Source: Alphaproteobacteria bacterium UBA1185 (GTDB lineage Bacteria > Pseudomonadota > Alphaproteobacteria > Rs-D84). From it: 64,000 nucleotides of DNA. The notes below the pieces were generated by a model, which saw nothing but the letters and a program-made list of their open reading frames with translations, was not told the origin of the DNA and made no database searches. Position 1 is the first letter of the stretch; every line of letters starts with the position of its first letter. The position numbers and the translations under genes are program-made. Where the stretch lies: positions 64,009 through 128,008 of the forward strand of contig DBYN01000004.1 in NCBI GenBank assembly GCA_002310415.1, in the 5' to 3' direction. Shown one piece after another: positions 5,890 through 58,065 of the stretch.

Positions 5890-8800
5890 TTATTCACCAC
5901 TTGTCGCGATTACGTCTGTGGCTTCGTATACACCACTTTTGGCGATAATACGTAATGTATGCCCACTGGATAATTGTGTCGGTTCAGACAACGGTTCTTT
6001 TTGGGTCAAATTGATATAATATACACTGCCATTTGAACCTTTTACCGATAACGCTTTGTGTGTTTTATGTTCAAAATCTACCAAGCACATCGGCGCACCC
6101 ATAATAGTTACTTCTTTGGTCAAACAATCTGAACCACATACTACGCCAGGCAAACATAGGCACTCTTCACCATCCCATTCATATTTAACATCACAAACAC
6201 ACCATTCAGCACCAGTAATATATGTACGACCATGATTACCACAGGGGATACATGCGTCCATACCATCATCTGGTGCGACTGTATTCATACCACAAGGTAT
6301 CATACCACTATTATCACTAACTTCTGATTTCAGCCATGCACCACCTGGGCAATAGTTTCCGCTGTAACATTGGGCACGGTCTACCCAATCTTTTGATAAA
6401 TCATAATGAACTATGTATTCTCCAGCAACAGCACACACATAATTATCTTTATCACACACACATTCACCTTCTTTGGAAGCCCACACATACCCTGTTGGAC
6501 AAGTTGTAGAAACACAAGTATTTGTAGCATAACTCCACCCATAACCTTCATCACAAATACATTCTGTTGCACCAGCAGTATCTGTATGCCCGTGTTCACC
6601 ACATGATACACACGCAGACATACCACTCTTTGGCGCAACCGTATTTATATCACACGATGTCGAACCAATCAAACCATTAAGTTCTGATGTTACCCATGCA
6701 CCCCCTGGACAATAATGCCCTGGCTTACATTGACTACAATAATAATCACCTTTTTCGCCATACTCTACATATTCACCAGTATCACAACACAGATAATTAT
6801 CTTTATCACAGATACAACCTTCTTTAGAATTCCACACATACCCGGTTGGACAAGTTGTAGAAACACATTGTCTGCGATAAAAACTCCATGCATACCCCTC
6901 ATCACAAATACATTCTGTTGCACCAGTAGTCTCTGTATGCCCATGTTCACCACATGATACACATGTTGACGACTCTCCCCATGGTTCCGCTGTATTCATA
7001 TCACACAATATTTGGCCAACAGAACCGCTTGCTTCAACTTCTGATTTTTGCCATACACCGCCCGGACAATAATGCCCTGCATCGCATTTGCTGCAACCAT
7101 AATTTGTATAAGCATTACCTTTGCCATCATCGTAGTTTTCATAATATGCATAGCTACCATCATAACAACACACATAATTATCATCATCACAGATACAATG
7201 ACCACTTTTTTCATACCACACATACCCAGTTGGACAATTTGCAGGCAAACACATATTATCTGCTTCACTCCAGCCATAACCTTCATCACAAACACATGCA
7301 TCTGCACCAGCATCTGCATGTCCATGTTCAGGACAAGACATACACGCAGACATACCCTCGTACGGCGCAAATGTATCCACTCCGCACGATGTCATACCAG
7401 TATCACCATTCAATTGTGATATTTCCCATAAACCACCCTCACAATAATTCCCAGGCTCACATTCCCAACATGCATAATAATCACCTTTGTCACCTTTTTT
7501 TCCACCATCAGGTTCATAATGCGCATATTCGCCAACATCACAACATGCATAATTATCTTCATCACAAACACATTCACCTGCTTTGGAATCCCACATATAG
7601 CCAGTTGGACAAGTTGCAGAAATACATGTATTCGTTTTATAACTCCACCCATAACCCTCATTACAACTGCACTCTGTTGCACCAGTGGTATCTGTATATC
7701 CATTCTCACCACAAGGTATACATGCAGACATAGAACCGTCTGGTGCAGCTGTATTTATATCACATGGTATCAAACCAGCATTATCACTAACCTCTGATTT
7801 CAGCCACGCACCACCTGGACAATAGTGTCCGCTGTAACATTGGGCACGATCTGCCCATTCCCAATCATCATAATGAACTATGTACTCACCTGCATTAACA
7901 CATACATAATTATTTTCATCACAGGCACAAGCACTTCCATCCCATACATACCCAGTTGAACAAGGATTAAGAATACAAGCGCTTGCTGTATAATCATAAA
8001 CATACCCATCGTCACAATCACAGGCGGGATGCGACCCAGTTTCACATGAATATAAACCAGGGTTCTCTACTGACAATTCAGAACCACCTGGACAATAATA
8101 ACCATCCAAACAATATGCACAACTTACCATACCAGGTACACCATACGCATATTGCCCAGCGGGGCAATCTATGGTTAATAACCCCATTCGAATATAGAAA
8201 GTTTTATCACCAGAATCTTGTGCACTGACATTAATAGAATAAGTCCAGTTATTATCTTCATCATACCAACCATTAAAGAAATATCCTGGTTTACTGGGAA
8301 TTTGATAAAAAGAATATCCGACCCCTGGTATATAAAAATTAGCCGGCTCACCATTTGTCCACACAGACCCATCTATTTCGTATGTAATATTATAAACCGG
8401 AACATTACATTCGTCATGCGTTGCATTAGCAGCCATACCATTACACTTAAATGTTGTCGCTTGGGTTAAACAACCTGCGCCACTGCACGCAACACATTTT
8501 GTGCCCGAAAAACTTTCGCCAGCCTTGCAGATAACACTGTCTACTGGGGCGCACGATACATGACCATCAAAATATTCCTCAAAGCCTGTTATATATTGTG
8601 ATAATGGTACACCATTTTCTTGATACCACGAACAACTTGTTGCCACACTTGTGTGAGTAAAAGCATCATTAAACTGATTTGTAATTGTTGTCTGCTTATC
8701 AAGGTTGATAAACAATGTTGGAGGTATATAACCCTGCACATTATAACTTCCATTAAACATATCCGCAAACATGTATTCCACCGGTACCCCATATATACCA

Positions 8801-9669
8801 TCAAACAAACTATCAGGAATCTTTCCGATAAAATTATACCCGCAACCACTAAATACACCTGCAAATCGTGGCTGTATCGCCATCAAAGCAGGTGAATTGG
8901 TGGCCAATCCTGTTGTATTACCCAATGTCGGAAATATTGCCCCCAACGAACCAGATATTTCCCTTACTCTGCTTATATAATCAAAAATATGCACAGATTT
9001 ATTTTCATTAACAGAAACAGGATCGTTTTTATCATCAAAATTAAAAACTATAGCGGAACTGCCATCTTGAGCGTACCCCGTCGCATTTCCACCAATACGC
9101 ACAGTAACATCTGTAGCGGACACGTGGTATGTGTGGGAATACACACTATAAAAATAATTCGAAGGCACCTTATTTATGTATTCTACATTGCCATCACCCC
9201 AATCAATCCAAAATTTACCACCCGCACTTAACGAAAAACCAAAATAATCCCCAGTATCTCCTTTTTCATTTATATTGCCAATATTTACTTGGAATTTGTC
9301 CTGTTCCCACATGGCAACGTATGTTGTATTGGTTGTGGGGTTATCTGGCATTGTCCAATGAACCAATGTTTTTGACGCGTTACCGTTCGTTATAGTCTCT
9401 AACCCAACCCTGTCTGTGGAACAAGTGTCTTGATTATTAACCTTGGAATAATGTTCGGAATCACACCAACCCGCAAATATATAATTGTCTTTAATCGGAT
9501 TTGCGGGAACAACCGCATTTTCTGATGTTTCTATTTGATACACAGGGTCGTTACTGCCCGGTAAATGCCCGCCATTTAAATTATACGTAATTGTAACACC
9601 AAATGATGATGTTGCCGACATTACAAACGCAACAATACCGAATAAATATAACTTTATATTATGAAACAT
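5890..9669 (-). CDS. Giant secreted cysteine-rich repeat surface protein, paralog A (1259 aa from ATG 9669)
   Basis: The start was set at MFHNIKLYLFGIVAFVMSATSSFG (signal-peptide-like), which matches the start of paralog B. The N-terminus has Listeria/Bacteroides-type repeat (Flg_new-like) segments (TITYNLNGGHLPG...NYIFAGWCD). The middle holds five tandem Cys-rich modules of about 100 aa. The C-terminal ~70 aa is shared with paralog B. Confidence 0.85.
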   Translation of the reverse strand: MFHNIKLYLFGIVAFVMSATSSFGVTITYNLNGGHLPGSNDPVYQIETSENAVVPANPIKDNYIFAGWCDSEHYSKVNNQDTCSTDRVGLETITNGNASKTLVHWTMPDNPTTNTTYVAMWEQDKFQVNIGNINEKGDTGDYFGFSLSAGGKFWIDWGDGNVEYINKVPSNYFYSVYSHTYHVSATDVTVRIGGNATGYAQDGSSAIVFNFDDKNDPVSVNENKSVHIFDYISRVREISGSLGAIFPTLGNTTGLATNSPALMAIQPRFAGVFSGCGYNFIGKIPDSLFDGIYGVPVEYMFADMFNGSYNVQGYIPPTLFINLDKQTTITNQFNDAFTHTSVATSCSWYQENGVPLSQYITGFEEYFDGHVSCAPVDSVICKAGESFSGTKCVACSGAGCLTQATTFKCNGMAANATHDECNVPVYNITYEIDGSVWTNGEPANFYIPGVGYSFYQIPSKPGYFFNGWYDEDNNWTYSINVSAQDSGDKTFYIRMGLLTIDCPAGQYAYGVPGMVSCAYCLDGYYCPGGSELSVENPGLYSCETGSHPACDCDDGYVYDYTASACILNPCSTGYVWDGSACACDENNYVCVNAGEYIVHYDDWEWADRAQCYSGHYCPGGAWLKSEVSDNAGLIPCDINTAAPDGSMSACIPCGENGYTDTTGATECSCNEGYGWSYKTNTCISATCPTGYMWDSKAGECVCDEDNYACCDVGEYAHYEPDGGKKGDKGDYYACWECEPGNYCEGGLWEISQLNGDTGMTSCGVDTFAPYEGMSACMSCPEHGHADAGADACVCDEGYGWSEADNMCLPANCPTGYVWYEKSGHCICDDDNYVCCYDGSYAYYENYDDGKGNAYTNYGCSKCDAGHYCPGGVWQKSEVEASGSVGQILCDMNTAEPWGESSTCVSCGEHGHTETTGATECICDEGYAWSFYRRQCVSTTCPTGYVWNSKEGCICDKDNYLCCDTGEYVEYGEKGDYYCSQCKPGHYCPGGAWVTSELNGLIGSTSCDINTVAPKSGMSACVSCGEHGHTDTAGATECICDEGYGWSYATNTCVSTTCPTGYVWASKEGECVCDKDNYVCAVAGEYIVHYDLSKDWVDRAQCYSGNYCPGGAWLKSEVSDNSGMIPCGMNTVAPDDGMDACIPCGNHGRTYITGAEWCVCDVKYEWDGEECLCLPGVVCGSDCLTKEVTIMGAPMCLVDFEHKTHKALSVKGSNGSVYYINLTQKEPLSEPTQLSSGHTLRIIAKSGVYEATDVIATSGE
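6140..7970 (-). repeat. Five tandem ~290-bp coding repeats (Cys-rich modules starting C[PS]TGY[VM]W)
   Basis: Protein modules recur with C-x-C-D-x-D-N-Y, GHYCPGG and CGEHGHTDT-GATEC-CDEGYGWS. The first and last modules also share DNA runs (compare 6281-6420 with 7741-7900). Confidence 0.85.
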
Positions 9670-9717
9670 ATTCTTCCCCTTTCCCAGAATTCTGCGGATT
9701 ATATTCACTTCATAAAC

Positions 9718-9746
9718 ATTATAGCAAAAAGGTACCTTTAATTCAA
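9718..9746 (-). promoter_or_regulatory. Candidate hybrid sigma70 promoter TTGAAT-17-TATAAT facing gene A
   Basis: The -10 TATAAT (rc of 9718-9723) lies in the fixed flank. The -35 TTGAAT (rc of 9741-9746) spans the IR/core junction, so it exists only in this core orientation. Confidence 0.4.
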
Positions 9747-9890
9747 CATATTTTTTTATACTTTTACATTTTTTAATGATTTTTGACATTAATTCTCTAA
9801 CTCCCGTGGATTTATTGAGATACAGCGATTTTTATCACTGATATTTTATTGACAATATTTTGTTTTGAACGTAAAAATTAAAGGTACGTT
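9729..9890. promoter_or_regulatory. Invertible DNA switch, copy A: 15-bp IRs (9729-9743, 9876-9890) flanking a 132-bp core (9744-9875)
   Basis: The core equals the reverse complement of 57767-57898 (126/132 identical), while both flanks are co-linear with the twin locus. The IRs are AAGGTACCTTTAATT and AATTAAAGGTACGTT (14/15). Confidence 0.8.
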
Positions 9891-10077
9891 AAAACTTTAT
9901 ACTGCCCGCTCAACCCCACAGATTTCCGGGAGTATTTCCAGACACCAATTCTCCCCTTTTTTTTGGGGGGAGTACAACACAGCCTGGAAGGAGGTAAAAA
10001 ATCCAAATACAAAATAAATTTCGTAAATTGGTATTAAAAAAACTATTGTACCAGACGTGCGGTTCGACAAACTGATA

Positions 10078-18042: not shown

Positions 18043-18076
18043 AAAATACCCCGAAATTTTTCGGGGTGTTTTTTTA
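18041..18076. terminator. Bidirectional terminator between rnhA and the ankyrin gene
   Basis: ACCCCGAAA/TTTCGGGGT hairpin flanked by A and T runs. Confidence 0.8.
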
Positions 18077-18535
18077 TTTTGTTTTGACATTGGCATCTAA
18101 TAGTTTTTGTTTCTTATCATTATAACGTGTCAAAAGATGCTCATATAGATACCCTTGTACTATTGCCGACCCATACTTTCCTGCTATATCAAAAACATTT
18201 TTATCAGCTTTATTCACTATATCTAAATCTATGTCGCAATGTGTTAATAAATAATATTCTACATCATTATGATTATTTTCTACAGCAAACATTATTGCTG
18301 TATCTCCTTTGATATTTTGTAAATTTGCATTTGCCCCGTTTTTAATGCAATATTCAACTGTGGGTAAATCTCCATACCTAGCAGCAAACATTAAGCCTGT
18401 CATTCCTGATTTATCTTGTGCATTTATATCCGATAAACTTTTTAAAAAATTTCTCATTCCAACTGTATCTGCATACTCAAATACTGTACTAAACGAAAGT
18501 GGAAGATATTTACTTTTTGCATTTTTTTTCGTCAT
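18074..18535 (-). CDS. Ankyrin-repeat protein
   Basis: ANK consensus segments (GMTGLMFAARYGDLPTVEYCIKNGANANLQNIKGDTAIMFAVENNH). Confidence 0.8.
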   Translation of the reverse strand: MTKKNAKSKYLPLSFSTVFEYADTVGMRNFLKSLSDINAQDKSGMTGLMFAARYGDLPTVEYCIKNGANANLQNIKGDTAIMFAVENNHNDVEYYLLTHCDIDLDIVNKADKNVFDIAGKYGSAIVQGYLYEHLLTRYNDKKQKLLDANVKTK

Positions 18536-31516: not shown

Positions 31517-32179
31517 TTATTTGTGTCTTAATCTACGAAGCCTCAAATTTCTCATACGTTGTTTTTCTTTCTTTTTGGCTTGAAAATTGTTATATGCTAT
31601 TTGTGCAGTTAGTTCGTCTATCTTTTGTTTTAGATTGGCATTTTCTTGTTCTGATTTTGCCAAATTGGCTTTCAATGCGGTAAATGGTGCTTCTTTCAAC
31701 AATTCGATTACTTCTTTTGGGGCTCCGCTAAATAAAGCAATCGTCAATGGTGTACGACCATCTTTGGCTTTTGCGTTTACATCGGCGCCTTTATCAATTA
31801 ATAATTCAATTACTTCTTTTGAGGCTTCGTTAGCACAAGCAAACATCAATGGTGTCCAACCATAATTGTTTTTTGCGTTTACATTGGCATCTTTAGCAAT
31901 TAATAATTCAATTACTTCTTTTGAGGCTTTGTTAGCACAAGCAAACATCAATGGTGTCCGACCACCATTGGCTTTTGCGTTTACTTTGGCACCTTTAGCA
32001 ATTAATAATTCGATTACTTCTTTTCGTGCTTCGTGATATAAAGCAAACACCAATGGTGTCCAACCATCATTGTCTGTTGCGTTTACATCGGCACCATCCT
32101 GGATGGCTTGGTTTATTTCTGATATTGAACCCTTTCTAATGGCAGTCAATAAATAACGTTCTTTAACTGTCCATACCAT
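31517..32179 (-). CDS. Ankyrin-repeat protein with coiled-coil and basic tail
   Basis: Near-identical 33-aa ANK units (KEVIELLIAKGAKVNAKANGGRTPLMFACAN...). The C-terminus has a coiled coil and ends in RMRNLRLRRLRHK. Confidence 0.85.
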   Translation of the reverse strand: MVWTVKERYLLTAIRKGSISEINQAIQDGADVNATDNDGWTPLVFALYHEARKEVIELLIAKGAKVNAKANGGRTPLMFACANKASKEVIELLIAKDANVNAKNNYGWTPLMFACANEASKEVIELLIDKGADVNAKAKDGRTPLTIALFSGAPKEVIELLKEAPFTALKANLAKSEQENANLKQKIDELTAQIAYNNFQAKKKEKQRMRNLRLRRLRHK

Positions 32180-32302: not shown

Positions 32303-33994
32303 TTATATACCTTTCTCTATGCAAGCCTGACCACAAGTATCTTCACATTCGCTTGAATCATCAAAAACATAAGTTTTAACCCAATCTGTATTTGCGCCAT
32401 CGAATTTACACCAACATTGTTCCCCTGTTGTTGTTATTGAACGATTAAGTTCAGCATTAACTTGGATGGTATCCAAAGATGTACATTTTGCCATACCGTG
32501 GTACTTTGTACCGTCGGCATATATAACAGCCCAACCACCATAAGGTATATCAGAACATTGACTGGAATCCACATTACCAAATCTGTAATTACCATTACCT
32601 TGCAAATCAACCTTGGCAAAACAAGAACCTTTGTAAGTGCGAAAATTTGCATTTGGGGTTTTCGGTTGATTACTTGTTAAAAATTCTTCTTTTTCAGTGA
32701 AATCTTTGGCACAATCCTCTTCGCACCACGTTTCACATCCATCAGCATCTTTATATGCCTGGTAAGAATATTCCCAATTGGCATTTGCACCGGCTGTTTT
32801 GCACCAACAATATTTTCCAGTTCCAGAACGATTAAAATCGTTATTATTTAAAATACTTTCAGTTGCCATACATTTAGCAAAACCTGTATAGGTGGCACCA
32901 TTACCAAGTGTTATACTCCAACCCCCAAAAGGAACATCTTTACATAAATTGCTGTTTGATAAAGTATACGAGTTGTTTTTGTTTTGAAAGGCTGTAAAAC
33001 ATCTACCCGCTTTATCGCGCACTTTTGAATTAGAGTTAATAATTTCATCCTGGACATCAGACACTTCTTCTTGCCCGCCAAGAAATGTTTCGGCATATAA
33101 ATCATCATAATACGCTATAAACTCACGAGCCCGCCCCTGCGTATGTATCGCAATCAAAAGACCATTTTCATCAAAAATGGGACCTCCTGAATTACCGCCC
33201 CATGATTGACACGAAGTTTTATCAACCGATGCTTTGTCACCAGACGATTCAAAATCAGACAAATGACAATGAAAAGAGCCTTTTAATTGGTCTGAATCAT
33301 TTGGAAATATTTTTGTAAATAACTTAGTCTCACCAATTTCTTTTATAAAATTGTCTTTGTTAATTTTTTTATTAGACAATGCCTTCTTGAACTCATCCCT
33401 TGCAGCCAGTATTTGTTTATCACTCATAATAGGCAAAGCACCATAACCGACAACTTCAAAATAACCAGAATACATATCGCCAGTGGTTACAAATGGGACA
33501 CTTTCTGCATATTCATCTGGTATTTTATACATAGCGGAATCATTACCCTGCTTTCCCATACCACTATACATAAACTCTACCTGCATTTCAGTACCGTCTT
33601 GCAATCTTACAGATATAGGATCTGTTCCGTTATCATCTACACAATGTCTTGCGGTGTACACATATAATTTACCATCATTTGGATTTTTAACTATGGTTCC
33701 TGTGCAATAATTACCACCCTTATCATACAAAGCAACCACAGCGTTATAAGGTGATTTTTGTTTTTGTTCATCTGTTAAATAACAACGTCTGTCAATTGTA
33801 TAATCATTGTAATGCGCACCATTATTTTGACAACGGTCAGAAAAACTTCCTGTTCGCACACCAGAAGCATGTTCAAAAGCATTCTCTTTTATTGCTTTGT
33901 TTACCGCGGTTTTAACATAATCATAACCATTTACCCCAAAAGACGCACCAGGTAAGCACGCGATCAACAAAGATACCCAAGACACTTTTGACAT
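32303..33994 (-). CDS. Secreted trypsin-like (S1) serine protease with two C-terminal Cys/Trp-rich modules
   Basis: Signal-like MSKVSWVSLLIACLPGASFG, His box YTARHCV, and Ser box GGNSGGPIF. The track start at 33997 is a TTG; the ATG at 33994 was used. Confidence 0.8.
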   Translation of the reverse strand: MSKVSWVSLLIACLPGASFGVNGYDYVKTAVNKAIKENAFEHASGVRTGSFSDRCQNNGAHYNDYTIDRRCYLTDEQKQKSPYNAVVALYDKGGNYCTGTIVKNPNDGKLYVYTARHCVDDNGTDPISVRLQDGTEMQVEFMYSGMGKQGNDSAMYKIPDEYAESVPFVTTGDMYSGYFEVVGYGALPIMSDKQILAARDEFKKALSNKKINKDNFIKEIGETKLFTKIFPNDSDQLKGSFHCHLSDFESSGDKASVDKTSCQSWGGNSGGPIFDENGLLIAIHTQGRAREFIAYYDDLYAETFLGGQEEVSDVQDEIINSNSKVRDKAGRCFTAFQNKNNSYTLSNSNLCKDVPFGGWSITLGNGATYTGFAKCMATESILNNNDFNRSGTGKYCWCKTAGANANWEYSYQAYKDADGCETWCEEDCAKDFTEKEEFLTSNQPKTPNANFRTYKGSCFAKVDLQGNGNYRFGNVDSSQCSDIPYGGWAVIYADGTKYHGMAKCTSLDTIQVNAELNRSITTTGEQCWCKFDGANTDWVKTYVFDDSSECEDTCGQACIEKGI

Positions 33995-34039
33995 CAAAAA
34001 AAACTTATACAGGCTTTCGATTTAAACGGTTACTTGCAA

Positions 34040-34373: not shown

Positions 34374-35090
34374 TTAATATATAATCTGCTTCTTCTTTGA
34401 TAACAAATCAATTAACACATCATTTTTTTTGTGTGTATGTACAATTAAGTTATTATTCAACAAATCCGCGCAATTAAACGGCATATCCCGGTAATTATAA
34501 TCTGTATCCTCAAAGAAAAAATTATATTGTTCTATAATGATAGATGTTAGAATTTTATCAGGGCTTAACGAAGAATTTTTTTCGATTTTATAATCTGCAT
34601 CAACAAAACATAAAACATTGCTCAATGTATATACAATATCACTGCTTCTATTTTCCCCTAAAAAACTAAGACTTTCAGACAATGTTTTTACAGATGTAAA
34701 ATCTACAAACGGAAACAAATAGAACGAGTTCGGTCCCACCATACTCCCGGTTGGATGTATATCTAGTATAATTTTTTGCCAACTATCTTTTAATTTATTT
34801 CTATCGAACGGTCTGCTGTTTCCTTCTTGGTCCTCGATCACGTATCGTACATCTTCCATAATTTTTATCGGACGCATATCTCGAAATTTATTGTTTTTGC
34901 ATATTATGTCAGGAACAGATACTAAATTATACCTTCCACGGTCTATATACTCCTTATATTTTTCCTCAAAAGAGTAACTCCTACCAAAGTCCCATTTATT
35001 TAAGCCTGCCTTACCAAACTTCTTAGCAGATACTGCTGTTAATATCAATTTTCCAACATACTGTGTTTTTTCGAGTTTATAATATTCCAT
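34374..35090 (-). CDS. Hypothetical protein, 238 aa
   Basis: ATG preceded by AAAGGGGG. No family recognised. Confidence 0.55.
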   Translation of the reverse strand: MEYYKLEKTQYVGKLILTAVSAKKFGKAGLNKWDFGRSYSFEEKYKEYIDRGRYNLVSVPDIICKNNKFRDMRPIKIMEDVRYVIEDQEGNSRPFDRNKLKDSWQKIILDIHPTGSMVGPNSFYLFPFVDFTSVKTLSESLSFLGENRSSDIVYTLSNVLCFVDADYKIEKNSSLSPDKILTSIIIEQYNFFFEDTDYNYRDMPFNCADLLNNNLIVHTHKKNDVLIDLLSKKKQIIY

Positions 35091-35125
35091 TTTTACCCCC
35101 TTTTAGTAATATATTCACCAAGTTT

Positions 35126-35872
35126 TTATAAAATCACTTGCCCACCAATATTTGCATTACGCGGTATTGGGCCAAAAGAAGATTGTTTACTGACATAAAT
35201 ATTACCTTTGACAGAAAACTGACCACAGAAACTTAATTTATCCACATTACGAATAAACAAATTTCCACGAATCTTTGCATCACATGGCAAAGTATATTTA
35301 CGCATATTTTGTATAAACAAATTACCGTCAATCTTTACACCATTTGATAACACTGGCGAAGATGGGTATAAATCTACGATAACATCACCAGTCAAATTTT
35401 GTTTTGGTAAAACTTTTGACGGCAAAGAAATCTGTTTGACAACCACAGGCTTTTTAACACCAATTGTTTTTATTTGTGGTTTTATACCTGTTTTTATGCT
35501 TGCTTTTAAAGGCAATGCTAAATTTGGTTTGATTTTACGTTGATTGATTTTGCGATTATCAACATTGTTCATTTTATGAGCAACAATAACTGCATTATTT
35601 TTTCTTGCATCATTAATTTGATTGTGATTTATCACATTCAAAATCAACCCCGCAAACAAAACAATTATTGCCACTAGCAAAGTCAAATTGACTATACCAA
35701 CAATATCAATACTTTTAACCCAGTTCCAAATTTTTTTACATACACGTACAATAAAACGCCAAACGCTTTTGCACAAATTCCATGGAAACAACAGTATTTT
35801 CTTTAACCACTGTTTCATAGTACGAGAACGAGTATTACGCGTTGCACTTTTTAATTTTTTCGATTTATTCAT
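35126..35872 (-). CDS. Membrane-anchored hypothetical protein with beta-helix-like C-terminal repeats
   Basis: Basic N-terminus and one TM segment (IVGIVNLTLLVAIIVLFAGLILNVI). The C-terminus has repeated x-[IV]-x-G-N-[LI]-[FY]-[IV] units (KIDGNLFIQN, KIRGNLFIRN, SVKGNIYVS). Confidence 0.55.
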   Translation of the reverse strand: MNKSKKLKSATRNTRSRTMKQWLKKILLFPWNLCKSVWRFIVRVCKKIWNWVKSIDIVGIVNLTLLVAIIVLFAGLILNVINHNQINDARKNNAVIVAHKMNNVDNRKINQRKIKPNLALPLKASIKTGIKPQIKTIGVKKPVVVKQISLPSKVLPKQNLTGDVIVDLYPSSPVLSNGVKIDGNLFIQNMRKYTLPCDAKIRGNLFIRNVDKLSFCGQFSVKGNIYVSKQSSFGPIPRNANIGGQVIL

Positions 35873-35874
35873 AT

Positions 35875-36288
35875 TTAATCCTTTTGGTTTTGTAAAATTT
35901 TGAAAATACCATTGGTAACTTCACGTAACATATTCGTTGCCATGTTATAGTAATTATCAGCATCATCTTTATACTTTGTTATGCTACGTTTATCCATACT
36001 TACACACGTACAACCTGAACTACTTTTAATAAATTTTGTAAATACACCCGTTGAAGCATCAAATATATACGCTTCACCCGAATCAATATCATCACGATAA
36101 AAACGTATTTCTATCGGAACAACAGTTTTGAATGATATAAGTCCATCTTCTGGCCATGTATAACGGGCAGACATACCATTTTTCATCATGACATTAACAT
36201 CATCAGATACCAAAGAAAAAACACTAATCTCGCGCAGTTCTTTTTCTATCCGAAACATTTTGTTATCCGCTTTTAACAAAAATTCCAT
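35875..36288 (-). CDS. Hypothetical protein (137 aa)
   Basis: ATG at 36288 (MEFLLKADNK...) lies 8 nt after AAGGAG. Its stop abuts the next gene's start. Confidence 0.55.
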   Translation of the reverse strand: MEFLLKADNKMFRIEKELREISVFSLVSDDVNVMMKNGMSARYTWPEDGLISFKTVVPIEIRFYRDDIDSGEAYIFDASTGVFTKFIKSSSGCTCVSMDKRSITKYKDDADNYYNMATNMLREVTNGIFKILQNQKD

Positions 36289-36398
36289 ATAATTACTCCT
36301 TGTTTTACGCAATATTATAGACACACAAAATCATTTGTCAAGATATTTTTGACATTTTTTTAATACGCCAATACACAACACTCTGTTCCTTAAAAAAC

Positions 36399-36427
36399 TT
36401 GACAATTGCGTTATTTTGTGTTATAAT
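36399..36427 (+). promoter_or_regulatory. Consensus sigma70 promoter TTGACA-17-TATAAT
   Basis: Perfect hexamers at 36399-36404 and 36422-36427, 28 nt upstream of the 36455 ATG. Confidence 0.7.
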
Positions 36428-36454
36428 AAGTGATGATGACAAAAGGACAATAAA

Positions 36455-38101
36455 ATGACAAATTCTTTTCCAGACGAATGGATAACATTAAACGATGTCG
36501 TATTGCTTATTGCATACAACGAAGTGTTAAGAACCAAAATTATGGATACCTTAATAGATTTACACAGCAAAGGCCAACATCCTGATTGGATAAAACAAAC
36601 TCATGTCAACAGATACAAATTTAACAAAAAATATCTGGAAGCCTTTTGTAAAGAATATGGTTTTGATTTGGCGGCACCAATAAAAAGACACGCTGTCGAT
36701 TATAAAAGCAAAAATTGGTTGTGCACCAAAGAATTAAGACAATATCTTCCAGGGTCAGAAAGTCAAATTCTGACAATATTACAGAAACTGCAATCACAAA
36801 TGCCTGATGCTATCAAAGAAAAACAAAATGGTCCTGTTGTACGTTTGTGCCTGCACAAAAAGTATATCGATACCGTAAAATCTATTATAAACAAAGAAAC
36901 AGCCAAACAAATCCAAAACGTAGACACCAATACAATATACGCAAATTGTTTTATGGAAAAAACCGGTCCAGACGAATGGATTAGTTTAACATATGTCAGA
37001 AATTTGATTTTAAACGGTCTTGAAGAACGCGACAGATTACATGATTCTTTGATGGCTTTGTATAACACGCAACAATACCCAAATTGGATACAGCGCGCAA
37101 CCAAAAAGCAATACATGTTCAACAAAAAGTATTTACCAGAATTCTGCATGATGTATTCATTTGAAATAAAAGATACACCTGATAGTAATATAAAATGGTT
37201 AAGAATTGTAGATTTACAACATTTAATAAGTAAATCTTGTCAAGATTTCTCCAAAACTCTAACCGCCGCACTACAAGACCTGCATAGCAGACACATATTT
37301 TCTAACTGGGTATGTCGCCCAAGCGAAAGCAGATATTATTTAAACGAAAAATATTTGATACCTTTTACAAAAATGTACAACTTTCGTTTAATTTGTCAGG
37401 ACACCAGAACCGAAGAATGGTTATCTGCCGCCGAAATATGGCAACAAACAAAATGTATAGAATTTAATAAAATCAGCCGATTATTAAAAAAACACCAATC
37501 CGATATGCCCGAATGGATACAAACAAAAAGAAAAAAACAATTACCTTGTCTGTGTTTACATCGCGACCATGTTTCAGAATTTTGCAAAATTGCCGGTATA
37601 CAATTATGCAAAGATACAAACGCAAAAACATCTGAGTGGTTTGCAACATCTGAATACAGATTATTTCTAAAAGATTTTGACGCAAATACACAAACGAACG
37701 CACTGGAAACAGCATTTACAAACATCGCAAAAACACATCCAGATTGGATTCAATATAAAACATGCAAAAACGGTCAAGAAAGATTATGTCTACACAAAAA
37801 TCACGTTGCTGATTTTTGTACCGAAACTGGTTTTATATGCAACAACAAGAAAACGGAACAATGGTTGGATGTTCGCGAACTTGGTTTAATGACACACATA
37901 TCACCTGCTAAAATATTGGTCACATTACAAAACAACCAAAAAGCAAACCCAGAAATTATCCAAATCAGACGTCTTAGTTCAAGACCTGTTTTATGTCTGC
38001 ACCGCGACCATGTCACCAAAATAACAGAATGGATGCAAAATTTAGATAAAAAAAGTATTGCTATGATAATTGTAAAAGACAGCGGATACAAATTGAAATA
38101 A
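36455..38101 (+). CDS. Orphan protein built of seven ~65-80-aa repeats
   Basis: Each unit has an [ED]-W-[ILF] motif near its start and P-[DNE]-[WAI]-I-[KQ] near its end (PDWIKQ, PDAIKE, PNWIQR, SNWVCR, PEWIQT, PDWIQY, PEIIQI). Two tail subtypes alternate: [KE]KYL..F (FNKKYL, LNEKYL) or LCLH+xH. Confidence 0.7.
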   Translation: MTNSFPDEWITLNDVVLLIAYNEVLRTKIMDTLIDLHSKGQHPDWIKQTHVNRYKFNKKYLEAFCKEYGFDLAAPIKRHAVDYKSKNWLCTKELRQYLPGSESQILTILQKLQSQMPDAIKEKQNGPVVRLCLHKKYIDTVKSIINKETAKQIQNVDTNTIYANCFMEKTGPDEWISLTYVRNLILNGLEERDRLHDSLMALYNTQQYPNWIQRATKKQYMFNKKYLPEFCMMYSFEIKDTPDSNIKWLRIVDLQHLISKSCQDFSKTLTAALQDLHSRHIFSNWVCRPSESRYYLNEKYLIPFTKMYNFRLICQDTRTEEWLSAAEIWQQTKCIEFNKISRLLKKHQSDMPEWIQTKRKKQLPCLCLHRDHVSEFCKIAGIQLCKDTNAKTSEWFATSEYRLFLKDFDANTQTNALETAFTNIAKTHPDWIQYKTCKNGQERLCLHKNHVADFCTETGFICNNKKTEQWLDVRELGLMTHISPAKILVTLQNNQKANPEIIQIRRLSSRPVLCLHRDHVTKITEWMQNLDKKSIAMIIVKDSGYKLK

Positions 38102-38123
38102 CAGTCAAACACACAAAATACAT

Positions 38124-38151
38124 TTGACAACTATTGACTTTGTGTTAGAAT
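38124..38151 (+). promoter_or_regulatory. Candidate promoter TTGACA-16-(TGT)TAGAAT
   Basis: Hexamers with an extended -10 TG were read directly, 38 nt upstream of the 38189 ATG. Confidence 0.55.
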
Positions 38152-38188
38152 AATCGCCACACAAAGATATTATACAAAGGACAAAACA

Positions 38189-38764
38189 ATGAAACTTTAC
38201 ACAACTGTTACATACAGGGTATCGTACCAAAATATTTTCGACAACCTAGAACACATTATTTCCGATGATTTAACATTAGATTCAGCAAAACATTCTTTTG
38301 CAGTGGTACCAAGCCCCGCCAATAAAGTAACAGTTACACGCATCGTAAATCTGTACGAAGATATAAAAGATGATTGGAAACAAATTACTGCAACACCAAC
38401 AGATAATTTCAGTTTCTATGTCAGCGATAAATTACCGACACTGGAAAATATCACAAATGCTTTAAACAAAGAATCCGACGGTTTTATTGGCTGGCAATAT
38501 ATTGATTTACCCGAACAATCCAAGAAAGTAGTTGTATCAACCGTACTTGTTTCTGAATACAATTGGAGCAGTTGGAACGGATACACACACAAAGCAGACG
38601 TACTTGTCAGAAAACTAAATAAAAATGATGTTGTTATAAACACCAAAGGACACGAAATTTGGCCACAAAAAACCGGAAACATTCCGTCCGAACTGGCAAG
38701 ATTATTTAAAAAGAATTCTGAACCATTGGAATTCATAAAAAATAATAATGTAAAAATCAAATAA
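38189..38764 (+). CDS. Hypothetical protein, 191 aa
   Basis: ATG with AAAGGA upstream and a terminator hairpin downstream. Confidence 0.55.
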   Translation: MKLYTTVTYRVSYQNIFDNLEHIISDDLTLDSAKHSFAVVPSPANKVTVTRIVNLYEDIKDDWKQITATPTDNFSFYVSDKLPTLENITNALNKESDGFIGWQYIDLPEQSKKVVVSTVLVSEYNWSSWNGYTHKADVLVRKLNKNDVVINTKGHEIWPQKTGNIPSELARLFKKNSEPLEFIKNNNVKIK

Positions 38765-38769
38765 CACAT

Positions 38770-38796
38770 AAAACCAGCATATTTATGCTGGTTTTG
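38770..38796 (+). terminator. Terminator downstream of 38189..38764
   Basis: ACCAGCAT-attt-ATGCTGGT followed by TTTT. Confidence 0.75.
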
Positions 38797-38827
38797 ATTT
38801 TATCACAACAAAACAACAACAAAGATT

Positions 38828-38850
38828 GATGGCGCGCCCAGCAGGACTCG
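38828..38850 (-). repeat. 23-nt duplicate of the tRNA-Arg 3' end (GATGGCGCGCCCAGCAGGACTCG)
   Basis: Identical to 39043-39065. That stretch covers 2 nt past the CCA, the CCA, the discriminator base, the acceptor 3' strand and half of the T arm. Confidence 0.9.
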
Positions 38851-39003: not shown

Positions 39004-39044
39004 AATTTTTGCTCTAATCACGACGAAGCGATAGTGAATACGGA

Positions 39045-39121
39045 TGGCGCGCCCAGCAGGACTCGAACCTGCAACCCACAGATTAGAAATCTGTTGCTCT
39101 ATCCAATTGAGCCATGGGCGC
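39045..39121 (-). tRNA. tRNA-Arg (anticodon UCU), CCA encoded
   Basis: Hand-folded cloverleaf: acceptor GCGCCCA/TGGGCGC, D arm GCTC..GAGC, anticodon stem ACAGA/TCTGT with loop TTTCTAA, T arm GCAGG-TTCGAGT-CCTGC. Length 77 nt. Confidence 0.92.
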
Positions 39122-42483: not shown

Positions 42484-44427
42484 ATGCAAACGATAAAACG
42501 AATTTTGATTGGATTTGTTACAGCCGTTTCAATTGTGACGGGGTGCTTTGCCGATTCAAAATGTGATAGTTCAGCATATTATCGCACACACAAAACAGAA
42601 TGCGAAAAAAGTTCAAACATCACAACTATATTGGCAGTAGCGGGTGGCGCTGCGTTGGCCGGTGTTGGAATTGCACTGGCTAATAACGGTTCATCAAATA
42701 ACGCAAGTTCCCCAGAACATTCAAATCAAACAATAACTCTGCGTTCGTCAAATACGAACAGCAATTATGCTTTGACAGACAAAATACAAAACAATAAAAT
42801 TTATACATCTTACATTTATTCCGAAACAAACGGCGCAGATATATCTGATGATATCTTGCAATTTGCCAAGGCAACCGAAACATACACCAAAAATTATAAA
42901 CAATTCGATTCCGTCAATCTTGCCTATGCAATTGCACGTGGATATACGGGTAAAAATGTCAATATTGCGATAATGGACGATTTTAATTATCACCATGGTT
43001 ATACAGTGCATAATTTGGCGCAATATGCTGCAAAAGATGCTAATATCGCGAATTATAATTTAACATACAGCCAACAATCATTTGTACCTTTTGACAAAAT
43101 AGCAGAAACCATAAAATATTCTGCACCTGCACACATTTACAACAACAGTTGGCAAATGGATTCAACCCAATATATGAATGCGGCAACTGTTGTTTATAAC
43201 AATTTCGACCCAAAAACTTATGCAAATGCCCAGCAATATATGTATTCGATTACCAGTCAGAATTTTATAAATCAAATCATTAACACAGCAATTGAAAATG
43301 ACAGCATTTTTGTTTGGGCGGCTGGCAACGATAGCCAAAAAGAAAGCGGTGCTTTGTCCGCTATGCCGTTGGCATTTCCTGAATTAAACGGGCATTTTGT
43401 AAACGTTGTGGCATTTGATCAAAATGCAAAAAAATTGGCTTGGTACAGCAATCAATGCGGTGTTACACAAAATTATTGCATTGCTGCCCCTGGTTCACTT
43501 TTACAAACAGACGCAAAAGAAACAACCGTCAGCGGGACAAGTTTTGCTGCCCCAATTGTTTCTGGCGCCATAGCAGTTATCAAAGAAGCATTTCCATATA
43601 TGACCGCCACACAAATAACTGAATTATTATTTACAACTGCACGTGATTTAGGTGACCCTGGTGTTGATGCCGTTTATGGTTGGGGTTTATTAGATATGGA
43701 AACCGCCACAAAACCAGTTGGAACACCAAAAATTGTTTTATCAAACGAAACCATTCAACCATTAACCGACGCAAATGTCGGTGGTATCGCCGCTAGTGCC
43801 ATTAAAAATGCCGGTTTAGAAATCGCCTTTGTCGATGATTTTGGACGCGCATTTAAAACGAAGTTATCAGATAGCATAAATGTTATTCCTTATGGACGCG
43901 CATTTGGTAAATTACAAAATAACGAAGATAATTTTGTTACAATTTTTGATAATCTAGAATTTGGCTTCAAAAAAACAAACATTTTGGAATCAAATGGATT
44001 TATTACGTCAAAATCAAACAATTTAACAAATTTTGTCGGGTATAAAAATGAATTTGTTTTTGATAATTTCAGCATTTATCAAAACGTTCGTTTTGGTACA
44101 ACAGCCCCAAAATCAGAATATAATTCGATTATAAACGGCTTTTCGAATATATATACTTCGTCTGTATCAACAGGCATAAAATGGAACGATTTTATATTTG
44201 AATTATCAATTCCAGAAACAATTTTGTACGGCAACATGTACATGAATTTACCAATTGGACGGGCAAATGACGGGCAAATGCTATATAATCAAACGAACAT
44301 CAATTTAAAAACAAAACCCAGTGTTGAATATTCTGTTAAATACAAAAACATTTATGCTGGTTACATAAATAACTATGATTACCAAGACGAATTTTTTATA
44401 ATGGCAAAAACAAAATTTACATTCTAA
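42484..44427 (+). CDS. Subtilisin-like (S8) serine protease with autotransporter-like C-terminal beta-domain
   Basis: Signal peptide; Asp box NIAIMDDF, His box HHGYTVHN, Ser box GTSFAAPIVSGAIA. The C-terminus ends in an aromatic residue (AKTKFTF). Confidence 0.8.
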   Translation: MQTIKRILIGFVTAVSIVTGCFADSKCDSSAYYRTHKTECEKSSNITTILAVAGGAALAGVGIALANNGSSNNASSPEHSNQTITLRSSNTNSNYALTDKIQNNKIYTSYIYSETNGADISDDILQFAKATETYTKNYKQFDSVNLAYAIARGYTGKNVNIAIMDDFNYHHGYTVHNLAQYAAKDANIANYNLTYSQQSFVPFDKIAETIKYSAPAHIYNNSWQMDSTQYMNAATVVYNNFDPKTYANAQQYMYSITSQNFINQIINTAIENDSIFVWAAGNDSQKESGALSAMPLAFPELNGHFVNVVAFDQNAKKLAWYSNQCGVTQNYCIAAPGSLLQTDAKETTVSGTSFAAPIVSGAIAVIKEAFPYMTATQITELLFTTARDLGDPGVDAVYGWGLLDMETATKPVGTPKIVLSNETIQPLTDANVGGIAASAIKNAGLEIAFVDDFGRAFKTKLSDSINVIPYGRAFGKLQNNEDNFVTIFDNLEFGFKKTNILESNGFITSKSNNLTNFVGYKNEFVFDNFSIYQNVRFGTTAPKSEYNSIINGFSNIYTSSVSTGIKWNDFIFELSIPETILYGNMYMNLPIGRANDGQMLYNQTNINLKTKPSVEYSVKYKNIYAGYINNYDYQDEFFIMAKTKFTF

Positions 44428-45946: not shown

Positions 45947-47470
45947 CTAGAATCTCATATTGATACCAACACGTATTCCCATCGATTTGTATACAGAATT
46001 AACTTCTTTTTTATCTTCAATCGCCCAACCAGCCGATTGCCAACTGGTATAGATATCTTGATATTCTTCATACACATCAACATCTATATCATTATCAGTC
46101 AACAAACCATCATCATACGCATCTAAAATCTCATTTATTGCATCTAACTCTGCACTATACCAAGCAGGACTTAAATACGTTTTTGCCTTTGCATCGGACA
46201 CTTTGTAATAATCCAAAGTAAAGCCCAATGACAACGAAGTTGCATCACTTATCGCAGTAACCCAACCCGCATTCATAGCAAAATGATAAGCATCGCCAAA
46301 TCCACCCTTGTCTTCTACACTGGTTGGGTGCGCCCAATCAACACGATATGGTTGATCGCCAGTTGATTTATAAATTGGCAAACCAAATTCAATACCACCA
46401 GTCAACAAATTATCTTTATTTATTTGATATTCCGCATCCAAAGCCAAATAAGGTCCAGCCCATTCAGTTTCATATTTATGCGATGTACTTGGCTGTTCAT
46501 AATAATATGTTCCACCCATATTCAAACGCGGCCAACCAGTATTATTTGGAAAAACATACTGATCATAGTCATCCATCACAACATCACCATTTTCATCCGT
46601 CTGAAAACCACCATACCCCTTCGGATTAGCAAGTGGATAACCATCTTCGGTCCAAAATTCCACCAATGGCCCACATTGTACTTCGTCACCAAATTGCAAA
46701 CAATTCACAAAACTTGCAGAATCCAAAACATCCACAGCCAAACCATAATTCTTTTCGGTTGTTAATTCATGTTTAAAATAACGATAACCAATTGACGGCG
46801 TAATCTTCGCGCGTCCCCATGTAAAGAAATCAGTTAAACCAAACGCGATATTAAATCCCATCTGTTTACCATCTTTACTGGTTCCAACAGACATAGCCGG
46901 GGTCCCCACAATAGTATCTTCATATTGCACGGTACCACCAACATCAAGCACCGGCATTTCAACAACACTCCACACTGCATATTCAGACGAAATATCATCG
47001 TCAATCATTGGTGAATCACCAAATTGCAGTCCATATTTAAAGCCCGCCTTTAATTGCATCTTTGTATTATCACCAAAATAATAAACACCACGCGCATCAA
47101 AAACATTCCACGCCAAATTATCATAATGCAACTTTGACCCCGCAGCATTCATATCAAATTCCCACTTACCAATTTCATGCGACAACCCCGCATCCAAAAC
47201 AAAACCCTGTTTATTTGAAGTTTGTTGTGCAGTCTTTTTATTTTGCGCATTCTGTTTTTGATTTCCCATCTGGTTTTCCATACCGTATGGGTTGTTTCCG
47301 TACCCACGCTGTGCACCATATCCGTACGAATTATAATAACCGGCACGCGTATATCTTTGCTGTGGATTTTGATATAAATTACCATTATAATAAGTTCCAA
47401 CAGCACCAGCAACCGCAGGGAACAAAGCCATTACAGCCATACTGCTAATGATACGAAATACATTTTTCAT
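45947..47470 (-). CDS. Outer-membrane beta-barrel protein with Tyr/Gly/Asn/Gln-rich N-terminal region
   Basis: The start was reset to ATG 47470 (MKNVFRIISSMAVMALFPAVAGA, SD GAAAGGAA), because the track TTG start at 47629 lies inside tRNA-Leu. The C-terminus GIRVGINMRF is typical of an outer-membrane protein. Confidence 0.72.
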   Translation of the reverse strand: MKNVFRIISSMAVMALFPAVAGAVGTYYNGNLYQNPQQRYTRAGYYNSYGYGAQRGYGNNPYGMENQMGNQKQNAQNKKTAQQTSNKQGFVLDAGLSHEIGKWEFDMNAAGSKLHYDNLAWNVFDARGVYYFGDNTKMQLKAGFKYGLQFGDSPMIDDDISSEYAVWSVVEMPVLDVGGTVQYEDTIVGTPAMSVGTSKDGKQMGFNIAFGLTDFFTWGRAKITPSIGYRYFKHELTTEKNYGLAVDVLDSASFVNCLQFGDEVQCGPLVEFWTEDGYPLANPKGYGGFQTDENGDVVMDDYDQYVFPNNTGWPRLNMGGTYYYEQPSTSHKYETEWAGPYLALDAEYQINKDNLLTGGIEFGLPIYKSTGDQPYRVDWAHPTSVEDKGGFGDAYHFAMNAGWVTAISDATSLSLGFTLDYYKVSDAKAKTYLSPAWYSAELDAINEILDAYDDGLLTDNDIDVDVYEEYQDIYTSWQSAGWAIEDKKEVNSVYKSMGIRVGINMRF

Positions 47471-47562
47471 GATTATTCCTTTCTTGATATATAGAGCATT
47501 ATAACATAAAATAGTTGAAAAAAAAATACTTTTATAATATATTTTGAAAAAAATTTCTTTAT

Positions 47563-47647
47563 GTGGCCATGGCGAAATTGGTAGACGCGCAGCACTAAGG
47601 ATGCTGTGGAGCAATCCTTGGGGGTTCAATTCCCCCTGGCCACACCA
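47563..47647 (+). tRNA. tRNA-Leu (anticodon AAG), type II with long variable arm, CCA encoded
   Basis: Hand fold: acceptor GTGGCCA/TGGCCAC, D arm GCG-AAATTGGTAGA-CGC, anticodon stem CAGCA/TGCTG with loop C-T-A-A-G-G-A, variable arm TGGAGCAATCCTTG, T arm GGGGG-TTCAATT-CCCCC. Length 85 nt. Confidence 0.88.
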
Positions 47648-57691: not shown

Positions 57692-57751
57692 ATTCTTCCC
57701 CTTTCCTAAGAATTCTGCGGATTATATTCACTTCATAAACATTAAAGCAAA

Positions 57752-57913
57752 AAGGTACCTTTAATTTTTACGTTCAAAACAAAAAATCGTCAATAAAATA
57801 TCAGCGATAAAAATCGCTGTATCTCAATAAATCCGCGGGATTTAGAGAATTAATGTCAAAAATCATTAAAAAATATAAAAGTATAAAAAAATATGTTGAA
57901 TTAAAGGTACCTT
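57752..57913. promoter_or_regulatory. Invertible DNA switch, copy B: perfect 15-bp IRs (57752-57766, 57899-57913) flanking a 132-bp core (57767-57898)
   Basis: The core is the reverse complement of 9744-9875 (126/132), and the flanks are co-linear with copy A. The core contains hairpin CAGCGAT-AAAA-ATCGCTG and palindrome AAATCC-GCG-GGATTT. Confidence 0.8.
57765..57793 (-). promoter_or_regulatory. Candidate core-borne promoter TTGACG-17-TAAAAA facing gene B
   Basis: The -35 is the rc of 57788-57793 and the -10 is the rc of 57765-57770. The same element (TTGACA, 9849-9877) points away from gene A at copy A. The -10 is weak because it lacks the final T. Confidence 0.35.
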
Positions 57914-58065
57914 AAAACTTTATACTGCCCACCAAACCACGCTGATTTCCGGGATTATTCCAGACACCAATTCTCCCCTTTGGGGGAGTACGGCGCAGCC
58001 GGGAGGGAGGTTGTTCTCCCCCAAAAGGGAGGGGTACGAGTAGTACAAACAAGAACAGAAAAAAC

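Follow-up and report, generated by a model that had tools for sequence, protein, structure and literature searches.

A probable multi-locus DNA inversion switch upstream of large secreted-protein genes in Candidatus Enterousia

The 64-kb stretch of contig DBYN01000004.1 analysed here (hereafter the window, in its full length) carries two paralogous genes for large secreted proteins, A and B, each preceded by a 132-bp core between 15-bp inverted repeats (IRs), and the two cores lie in opposite orientations. The locus therefore raises the question of whether these cores are flipped by a site-specific recombinase, as the preliminary description of this DNA had proposed, and what the flip would mean for the genes behind them. 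The host is Candidatus Enterousia (Alphaproteobacteria, order Rs-D84), the closest GTDB representatives being ~83% identical at the nucleotide level in a PrfA-based scan. Rs-D84 is an uncultured order with genomes of <1 Mb and no respiratory chain, and Candidatus Enterousia is a widespread uncultured lineage of animal guts whose lifestyle is unknown (PMC12306168). Invertons, i.e. IR pairs around a short segment, mostly of <300 bp, are known across many phyla, Proteobacteria included (PMC11602134). Our analysis makes it likely that the two elements belong to a multi-locus inversion system of this kind, in which a recombinase acting in trans would flip a promoter and thereby bring about phase or antigenic variation; this is a known kind of on/off switch in a lineage where it has not been described before.

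Alignment in both orientations reproduced the core match counted earlier by hand, positions 9744-9875 being identical to the reverse complement of 57767-57898 at 126 of 132 positions and to the direct sequence at 20 of 132. The 15-bp repeats reported to bound the flipped block, one of them a 14/15 match, were found where they had been placed. The sequence AAGGTACCTTTAATT occurs at 9729-9743, at 57752-57766 and, on the reverse strand, at 57899-57913, so both copies are perfect at locus B; the imperfect copy is the distal one of locus A (9876-9890), whose reverse strand begins with AACG and matches AAGGTACCTTTAATT at 14 of 15 positions. An independent repeat search joined the two loci in a single 171-nt inverted repeat (9729-9899 / 57743-57913, 94%), and the co-linearity claimed for the 5' and outer flanks was borne out by direct repeats on both sides (9676-9743 / 57699-57766, 93%; 9876-9936 / 57899-57959, 87%). 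With up to two mismatches allowed, the window contains four occurrences of the 15-mer (0.37 expected), a number reached in none of 100 shuffled sequences, and all four are the IR sites of switches A and B. The perfect palindrome AAGGTACCTT is present in each IR, and at the proximal sites the sequence reads AAAGGTACCTTT. We refer to the orientation of window A, with the TTTACG core end beside the distal IR when read in the gene direction, as the A-state, and to that of window B, with the CAACAT core end beside the distal IR, as the B-state. Same-species contigs for comparison (L-numbers) were retrieved from cow-rumen and other metagenomes by exact-protein look-ups of neighbouring genes, and all comparison contigs come from short-read metagenome assemblies. 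The parts of the two switches are as follows.

9729-9743: proximal IR of switch A, AAGGTACCTTTAATT
9744-9875: 132-bp invertible core of locus A, in the A-state; identical in L002, flipped at the same locus in L018
9876-9890: distal IR of switch A, AATTAAAGGTACGTT on the plus strand, equal to AACGTACCTTTAATT read toward the core
9891-9990, minus strand: distal flank of cassette A, co-linear with the B flank, with a G+C-rich hairpin CTCCCC...GGGGAG
57752-57766: proximal IR of switch B
57767-57898: 132-bp core of locus B, in the B-state; L005, L006, L014 and L018 in the same state
57899-57913: distal IR of switch B
57914-58046, minus strand: distal flank of cassette B, ending on the left at 58046 as judged from cassette-less strains

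The G+C-rich hairpin repeats of the distal flanks (GTACTCCCC-loop-GGGGAG and relatives; 9940-9975 and 57960-58046) have similar counterparts in intergenic DNA of other Enterousia metagenome-assembled genomes (L029, L031, L046, L049, L107) and look like a repetitive extragenic palindrome (REP)-like repeat family of Enterousia. A change in GC skew near 58 kb was considered as a breakpoint and rejected, the skew following the gene strand.

The element is part of a cassette of constant order, in which a ~100-nt distal flank with G+C-rich hairpins is followed by an IR, the 132-bp core, a second IR, a 59-nt leader and a gene of one family. The further IR pairs that the preliminary description had proposed to look for turned up as cassettes with the same 15-mer in other same-species contigs, in four upstream contexts and in both states.

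MscL context: window A, L002, L004, L018
RmuC context: window B, L005, L006, L007
5S rRNA context: L014
Unnamed context, labelled 'ctxZ': L017
A-state copies: window A, L002, L004 (junction only), L017
B-state copies: window B, L005, L006, L014, L018

The IRs stand 132 bp apart at both window loci and in five further copies, which is the geometry of an inverton, and the copies always occupy the same position 5' of one gene family, a gene-less copy in L017 excepted. All seven complete cores measure exactly 132 bp; their middles differ by up to 16%, and their ends are invariant, over 20 nt at one end (CAACATATTTTTTTATACTT) and over ~36 nt including TTGACR at the other (TTTTATTGAC[A/G]AT[A/T]TTTTGTTTTGAACGTAAA). 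At the MscL locus both orientations are observed, the A-state in the window, L002, L004 and L017 and the B-state in L018, with breakpoints exactly at the inner IR edges (9876, 9743); this is the locus at which both were seen, the comparison is between assemblies only, and replacement of the cassette is possible there.

It is scarcely credible that these orientation differences are artefacts of assembling a repeated element. Several contigs do break in or beside an IR (L001, L003, L006, L007), L002 and L004 are chimeric beyond the switch, and the short-read origin of all comparison data would suit such an explanation. Nevertheless, the 15-nt IR is far below the k-mers used (31-141), so that reads must span every contig junction, and both window orientations recur in independent assemblies (that of A in L002, that of B in L005 and L014). 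Moreover, the L017 and L018 cores differ at seven sites spread over 132 nt, leaving no long common k-mer for a false join.

The junctions of L017 and L018, contigs from two samples of one study, bear most directly on recombination at the IRs. Between UvrA and the distal IR of locus A (9876), L018 and the window are ~98% identical; the match resumes at the proximal IR (9743) and runs into gene A, at 97.7%, the core in between lying in the opposite orientation. L017 and L018 share 5,682 nt through the distal IR with no mismatch and diverge from the first base of the core. Past that IR, L018 continues with a B-state core, leader and gene, and L017 with a paralogous core (seven differences) in the A-state, an IR bearing a single-nucleotide polymorphism of its own (AACGTACCTTAAATT), ~45 nt of the reverse complement of a distal flank and then unrelated genes. 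Recombination of the MscL cassette, at its distal IR, with the proximal IR of another cassette would yield exactly this L017 junction, by the same inverted-site exchange as in a local flip, only between loci. The 5,682 nt without a difference that end in a break at the IR indicate that the recombination there was very recent. A further 6.6 kb along, L017 carries a second, inverted 'ctxZ' plus distal flank, which ends in AACGTAC followed by GGAATTTT, a half site in which homology stops at the centre of the IR palindrome. In addition, a C/G difference at IR position 3 keeps company with the MscL flank in both states, which places the exchange within IR positions 4-15 and, taken together with the half site, the strand exchange at or just inside GTAC. 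As judged from these junctions, recombination at the IRs is real and recent. The MscL-locus flip in L018 and the L017/L018 break at the IR thus support the earlier claim of a recombinase flip switch found in opposite states, that is, of an IR-bounded element acted on by site-specific recombination and present in two states.

Two side observations concern the same contigs. A ~110-nt inverted repeat in L017 (5815-5925 and 12497-12597), made of 'ctxZ' context and distal flank, brackets a 6.6-kb segment with genes for a helix-turn-helix (HTH) protein, Peptidase_S66, MGMT, HU, ACC and APH; possible readings are a larger invertible segment or the remains of recombination with a pseudo-site. L001 and L003, Logan contigs of separate sequencing runs, end at the same base in the distal IR of locus A (...AACGTACCTTT; ~9880), the last base common, on one strand, to the distal and proximal sites, and L007 ends 2 nt past the IR of locus B (~57897); such contig ends may reflect graph branches from variant junctions.

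An old inversion fixed at locus A, produced by a single illegitimate or short-homology event between the 15-bp repeats and demanding no dedicated machinery, would account for the single orientation of each locus in close strains (A in the window, L002 and L004; B in the window, L005 and L006) and for the failure to find a recombinase, described below. We hold this explanation to be highly improbable. The A and B cores are 95.5% identical against 76-87% for the adjacent distal flanks, and in seven copies with up to 16% divergence in the middle neither the IRs nor the core ends vary. In L018 locus A is oriented the other way, and the break between L017 and L018 falls at the IR with zero divergence in the flank. 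Besides, 15 bp is shorter than the length that RecA-dependent exchange usually requires.

The sites could also serve mainly for exchange between loci, in the manner of shufflons or of the Mycoplasma vsa/vpma genes, the orientation of the core being a by-product of large inversions. In L017 one core separates two opposed distal flanks; one and the same gene (99-100% identical) is found behind RmuC in L005 and behind 5S rRNA in L014; and the RmuC locus of L005 has a B-type flank but an A-type 5' part of the gene. The cores are also more alike within a genome than between orthologous loci: those of the window differ at 6 of 132 positions, compared with 15-17 for same-locus cores of other strains with flanks ~98% identical, which indicates that cores move or are converted between loci within a genome. 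As the main purpose of the sites, exchange of this sort appears unlikely to us. Every locus has the full IR-core-IR arrangement with an outward promoter-like site, needless if one site per gene sufficed, and window A and L018 are co-linear on both sides, so that the outcome there amounts to a local flip. Within the cassettes, A-type and B-type blocks of 50-200 nt form a mosaic, a pattern that resembles ordinary gene conversion and not site-specific exchange. The two readings are compatible, however, and it is tempting to speculate on a two-level system, which we put forward tentatively as the less probable form of the switch, in which local 132-bp flips and inter-locus exchange would both be carried out on one 15-bp site by the same trans-acting recombinase, a Bacteroides-type regulon with Mycoplasma-type shuffling added to it. 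Large inversions would then re-pair surface-protein genes, cores and upstream contexts.

Mycoplasmas offer a close parallel for such shuffling, as in the vsa/HvsR multigene inversion system of M. pulmonis. The Vpma genes of M. agalactiae form another multigene inversion system, served by Xer1 (PMC2268961, PMC5634654). Shared features are the reduced genome, a variable surface-protein family with conserved 5' ends and recombination sites in the 5' regions of the genes. In the Mycoplasma systems inversions between genes reshuffle the locus, which the L017 junction and the swaps of genes and contexts would fit; the flank-IR-core-IR-inverted flank order of L017 would suit a Vpma/Vsa-type event, and its reciprocal junction was not seen. 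The Mycoplasma systems differ in that one promoter moves among clustered silent genes and the gene for a Xer-like recombinase lies in the cluster. Here no single shared expression site is apparent, since each copy comes with a complete cassette of its own, at loci separated by 48 kb or set in other contexts.

The cassette itself is not a constant feature of these genomes. In a related species (L027) there is none behind MscL, which is directly followed by a TM2 gene and then leuS. Two contigs of the same species (L009 and L010) have no cassette B behind RmuC and are unrelated to the window from position 58046 on, although their RmuC protein is 100% and their DNA 99.4-99.7% identical to the window (L009, 3571-3622; L010, 1725-1840). 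The absence of the cassette in a related species and in some strains of the same species identifies switch and gene cassette as a lineage-specific, variably present insertion. No comparable IR-bounded element was found upstream of the homologous genes of other Enterousia species (L015, L016, L107-L116), and the 580-nt region 5' of a 1165-aa family gene is identical in ten assemblies (L107-L116), with no flip, which further argues that the switch is lineage-specific. Thus, the family is large and clustered elsewhere in the genus, but it is not switched in the same way there. The species of L107-L116 has four family genes in tandem, of ~1950, 1165, 429 and 2342 aa. In L015, from another Enterousia species, a (CA)12 tract (2759-2782) lies in the 5' end of the called Flg_new open reading frame (ORF) P0006, between an upstream ATG and a signal-peptide-like segment; it is a candidate site of slipped-strand phase variation in the same gene family and suggests that elsewhere the family undergoes phase variation by another mechanism.

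Such a patchy distribution would also be expected of a non-autonomous element with terminal inverted repeats, similar to miniature inverted-repeat transposable elements (MITEs), which had landed 5' of an ancestral gene and been copied along with it, the orientation of copy A being a rare old accident. The cassette is missing behind MscL in L027 and behind RmuC in L009 and L010, the gene-less copy in L017 has ~60-nt terminal inverted repeats, and a flank with a half site lies elsewhere in L017. We nonetheless consider a MITE-like origin of the orientation difference very unlikely. No target-site duplication was found, no direct repeat abutting the IRs; all copies but one lie at the same distance from the same gene family, and the window has just the two gene-associated copies, with none in an unrelated context. 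Searches for the element in other collections were equally negative: the IR-pair pattern GTACCTTTAATT-N120-145-AATTAAAGGTAC had no match in GTDB representative genomes, among which the host species is not included, and only two unrelated chance matches in JGI metagenomes; the invariant core end plus IR had no match in IMG/VR, and blastn of the switch had none in plasmid and phage collections. Furthermore, a transposase is as absent as a recombinase, and the 5.7 kb shared without a difference by L017 and L018 up to their split at the IR make the event recent and not old.

What the flip would do depends on the promoter-like sites in and around the core, listed below with a hairpin that accompanies one of them.

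9849-9878, plus strand: P2, core-borne, locus A; TTGACA-18-AAAAAT, pointing away from gene A in the A-state
57764-57793, minus strand: P2, core-borne, locus B; TTGACG-18-AAAAAT, pointing into gene B in the B-state
9718-9746, minus strand: P1, hybrid; TTGAAT-17-TATAAT with TG, the -35 made of core end plus IR and the -10 in the leader, A-state only
9727-9698 in the gene A leader, minus strand: P3, fixed; TTGCTA-18-TATAAT
57802-57819, minus strand: terminator-like hairpin CAGCGAT-TTTT-ATCGCTG with a T-rich tail, just 5' of P2 of locus B

Both sites named in the preliminary description are present, TTGAAT-17-TATAAT at 9746-9718 on the minus strand and the core-borne TTGACA site that starts at 9849 and points away from gene A, which we read as TTGACA-18-AAAAAT to 9878. 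Promoter geometry does change with orientation, as proposed there; the hybrid carries a good -10, TATAAT, in window A and L002 alone, window B, L005, L014 and L018 having TTTAAT instead. The TTTAAT form of a -10 is without the critical A at -11. P2, of the general form TTGACR-17/18-(T)AAAAAT with a -10 that spans the core/IR border, is invariant in all seven cores and faces the gene in the B-state only. P3 (TTGCTW-18-TATAAT) is found in all copies and faces the gene in both states. Fixed sigma-70-like promoters, read by eye, precede the homologous genes in related species, so the consensus appears to be meaningful in the genus. We give roughly even odds to P2 as the switched promoter, by which the B-state would be ON and the A-state OFF; it is favoured because it is the only site wholly on the mobile part, because it lies at the core end as in classical invertons and because it would explain the longer conservation of one core end. 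If P3 is active, the switch would modulate expression and not gate it. The hairpin was tried as a conserved functional part of the core and rejected, its folding energy being -14.1 kcal/mol in window B and -0.8 to -8.7 in the other copies.

On the enzyme that would act on the sites, no recombinase was found in the 64-kb window, where no ORF of unknown function matched such an enzyme in Pfam or PHROGs and the remaining ORFs were assigned to housekeeping by inspection. Specifically, no integrase, resolvase, invertase or transposase was matched in Pfam or PHROGs among window ORFs of no obvious housekeeping identity. The invertase search suggested in advance was extended to the called genes of ~100 kb of same-species contigs, again with no recombinase found. 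With no recombinase gene at hand locally, we infer action in trans by an enzyme encoded elsewhere in the ~0.9-Mb genome. A housekeeping Xer-type enzyme is conceivable, as a genome of this size may encode no other recombinase.

This arrangement recalls the promoter invertons of Bacteroides fragilis, which are reportedly run in trans by the serine recombinase Mpi. Both sets consist of short segments at dispersed loci, with one common IR, 5' of surface-structure genes, and carry promoters, putative ones in our case; in both, most loci have no recombinase gene beside them, a single enzyme serving all of them in B. fragilis, where the IRs likewise have a short palindromic core. The differences are the phylum, the shorter core (132 bp), the genome of <1 Mb and the targets, which here are single large secreted-protein genes and in B. 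fragilis polysaccharide operons. The fimS switch of Escherichia coli measures 314 bp, has 9-bp IRs and exists at one locus, with genes for the tyrosine recombinases FimB and FimE directly beside it. It resembles the element described here as a short IR-bounded segment whose promoter, putative in our case, is directed across one IR toward a surface-structure gene, and flipping so short a segment would probably need DNA bending in both cases. Unlike fimS, our element is present at several loci and has as neighbours MscL, AroK and PrfA or RmuC, Def and Fmt, with no recombinase gene among them. Therefore, of the two models offered in the preliminary description, 'fimS or Bacteroides inverton type', the Bacteroides kind was preferred and the fimS kind dropped for want of an adjacent recombinase gene. 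With the same 15-mer dispersed over four upstream contexts, a trans-acting multi-locus arrangement of the Mpi kind would, by analogy, be the better fit. In the Salmonella Hin/hix system and the Gin/Cin family, too, the site centres on a short palindrome flanked by A/T-rich arms, and the invertible segment carries a promoter, putative in our case; they differ in that hix is 26 bp long and the segment of ~1 kb encodes the invertase and an enhancer, for neither of which a 132-bp core has room.

Several points weigh against a promoter switch operated in trans. In no dataset were both orientations of one locus found in the same sample; the RmuC-type and 5S-type loci are in the B-state in every assembly. 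As the cassettes are mosaics, the flipped core of L018 could have come by cassette replacement and not by a flip in situ, and L017, which carries the apparent inter-cassette junction, stems from a short-read metagenome assembly. The terminator-like hairpin of the core is not conserved. Promoter-like matches are frequent in AT-rich DNA, six being found against 3.3 +/- 1.7 in shuffled sequences, and P3, if active, would express the gene whatever the orientation of the switch. To these is added the lack of a recombinase gene in the window and in ~100 kb of same-species contigs.

The multi-locus inversion switch, which we continue to prefer, could operate as follows. A putative recombinase encoded outside the window would act in trans on the 15-bp site AAGGTACCTTTAATT, with exchange most likely at or near the GTAC centre of the palindrome AAGGTACCTT, and would join two sites in inverted orientation. 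If both sites belong to one cassette, the 132-bp core would flip; with sites of two different cassettes, it is the intervening stretch of chromosome that would invert, and cores and genes would be re-paired. The core is predicted to carry at one end an outward sigma-70-like promoter, P2. In the orientation of locus B (57752-57913) transcription from this promoter would cross the proximal IR and the 59-nt leader and enter the gene, which we take as ON; in that of locus A (9729-9890) the promoter would read away from the gene, which we take as OFF for P2. In window A, a T-to-A change that creates TGCTATAAT in the leader may allow the OFF-state copy to be expressed anyway. The net effect would be phase and antigenic variation of large secreted proteins with Flg_new, leucine-rich repeat (LRR) or Cys-repeat regions.

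That a genome of <1 Mb sets aside several loci for large mosaic secreted proteins, with a probable recombination switch in front of each, suggests strong diversifying pressure on the surface, be it from a host cell, phage or the immune system, similar to the situation in mycoplasmas. Multi-locus invertons with a trans-acting enzyme would then exist outside Bacteroidota as well. The orientation of the switch can be read from any rumen metagenome. Larger rearrangements, too, seem to concentrate at the IR sites, a point of importance for the assembly and binning of these genomes, contigs breaking repeatedly at the switch.

The genes behind the switches and their leaders are as follows.

5890-9669, minus strand: gene A, 1259-aa secreted protein with signal peptide, Flg_new domain and Cys-rich tandem modules
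9670-9728, minus strand: leader of gene A, fixed, 59 nt, with TGCTATAAT as the -10 of the hybrid site P1, the promoter-like site P3 and a Shine-Dalgarno-like run
54791-57691, minus strand: gene B, 966-aa paralogue of gene A, its middle a BspA-like repeat region
57692-57751, minus strand: leader of gene B

Both proteins have a signal peptide, a Listeria-Bacteroides repeat (Flg_new) domain and a variable middle, and they share ~130 aa at the N-terminus and ~80 aa at the C-terminus. Their earlier designation as paralogous giant genes on the minus strand stands, except that the size label is generous for 1259 and 966 aa. The Shine-Dalgarno-like run in the leader of gene A is GGGGAAG, inside AAAGGGGAAGAAT. 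MscL, AroK and PrfA lie upstream of switch A, and RmuC, Def and Fmt upstream of switch B. Exact-product look-ups of genes A and B with two alternative starts each matched no record, a protein search with the N-terminal 167 aa alone gave no match, full-length protein searches found no close orthologue of gene A assembled elsewhere, and the Fmt look-up returned only short contigs that end before the switch. An in-frame ATG at 9789, inside the A-state core, adds 40 stop-free codons to gene A (MSKIIKKCKSIKKYVELKVPF...; 9670-9789, minus strand); at locus B, in the B-state, there is no upstream in-frame extension, the first start after a stop in the ORF list being 57691. The extension of gene A is probably fortuitous, though it alters ORF calling.

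Elsewhere in the window, an Rfam scan found two tRNAs and nothing else. A duplicate of the 3' end of tRNA-Arg(tct) (39045-39121, minus strand) is found at a distance of 215 bp (38792-38850 and 39007-39065), and the duplicated end adjoins five ORFs (34374-38764) with no Pfam or PHROGs match, one of which (36455-38101) is internally duplicated; these ORFs may be the relic of an integrated element, though no integrase is present. Finally, the window encodes ankyrin-repeat proteins (31698-32093 and 18074-18535), one of them with 102-nt tandem repeats, several secreted proteases (among them a subtilase at 42484-44427 and a trypsin-like protease at 32303-33997) and a Protochlamydia-type outer-membrane protein (45947-47629), a gene content that suggests a host-associated lifestyle.

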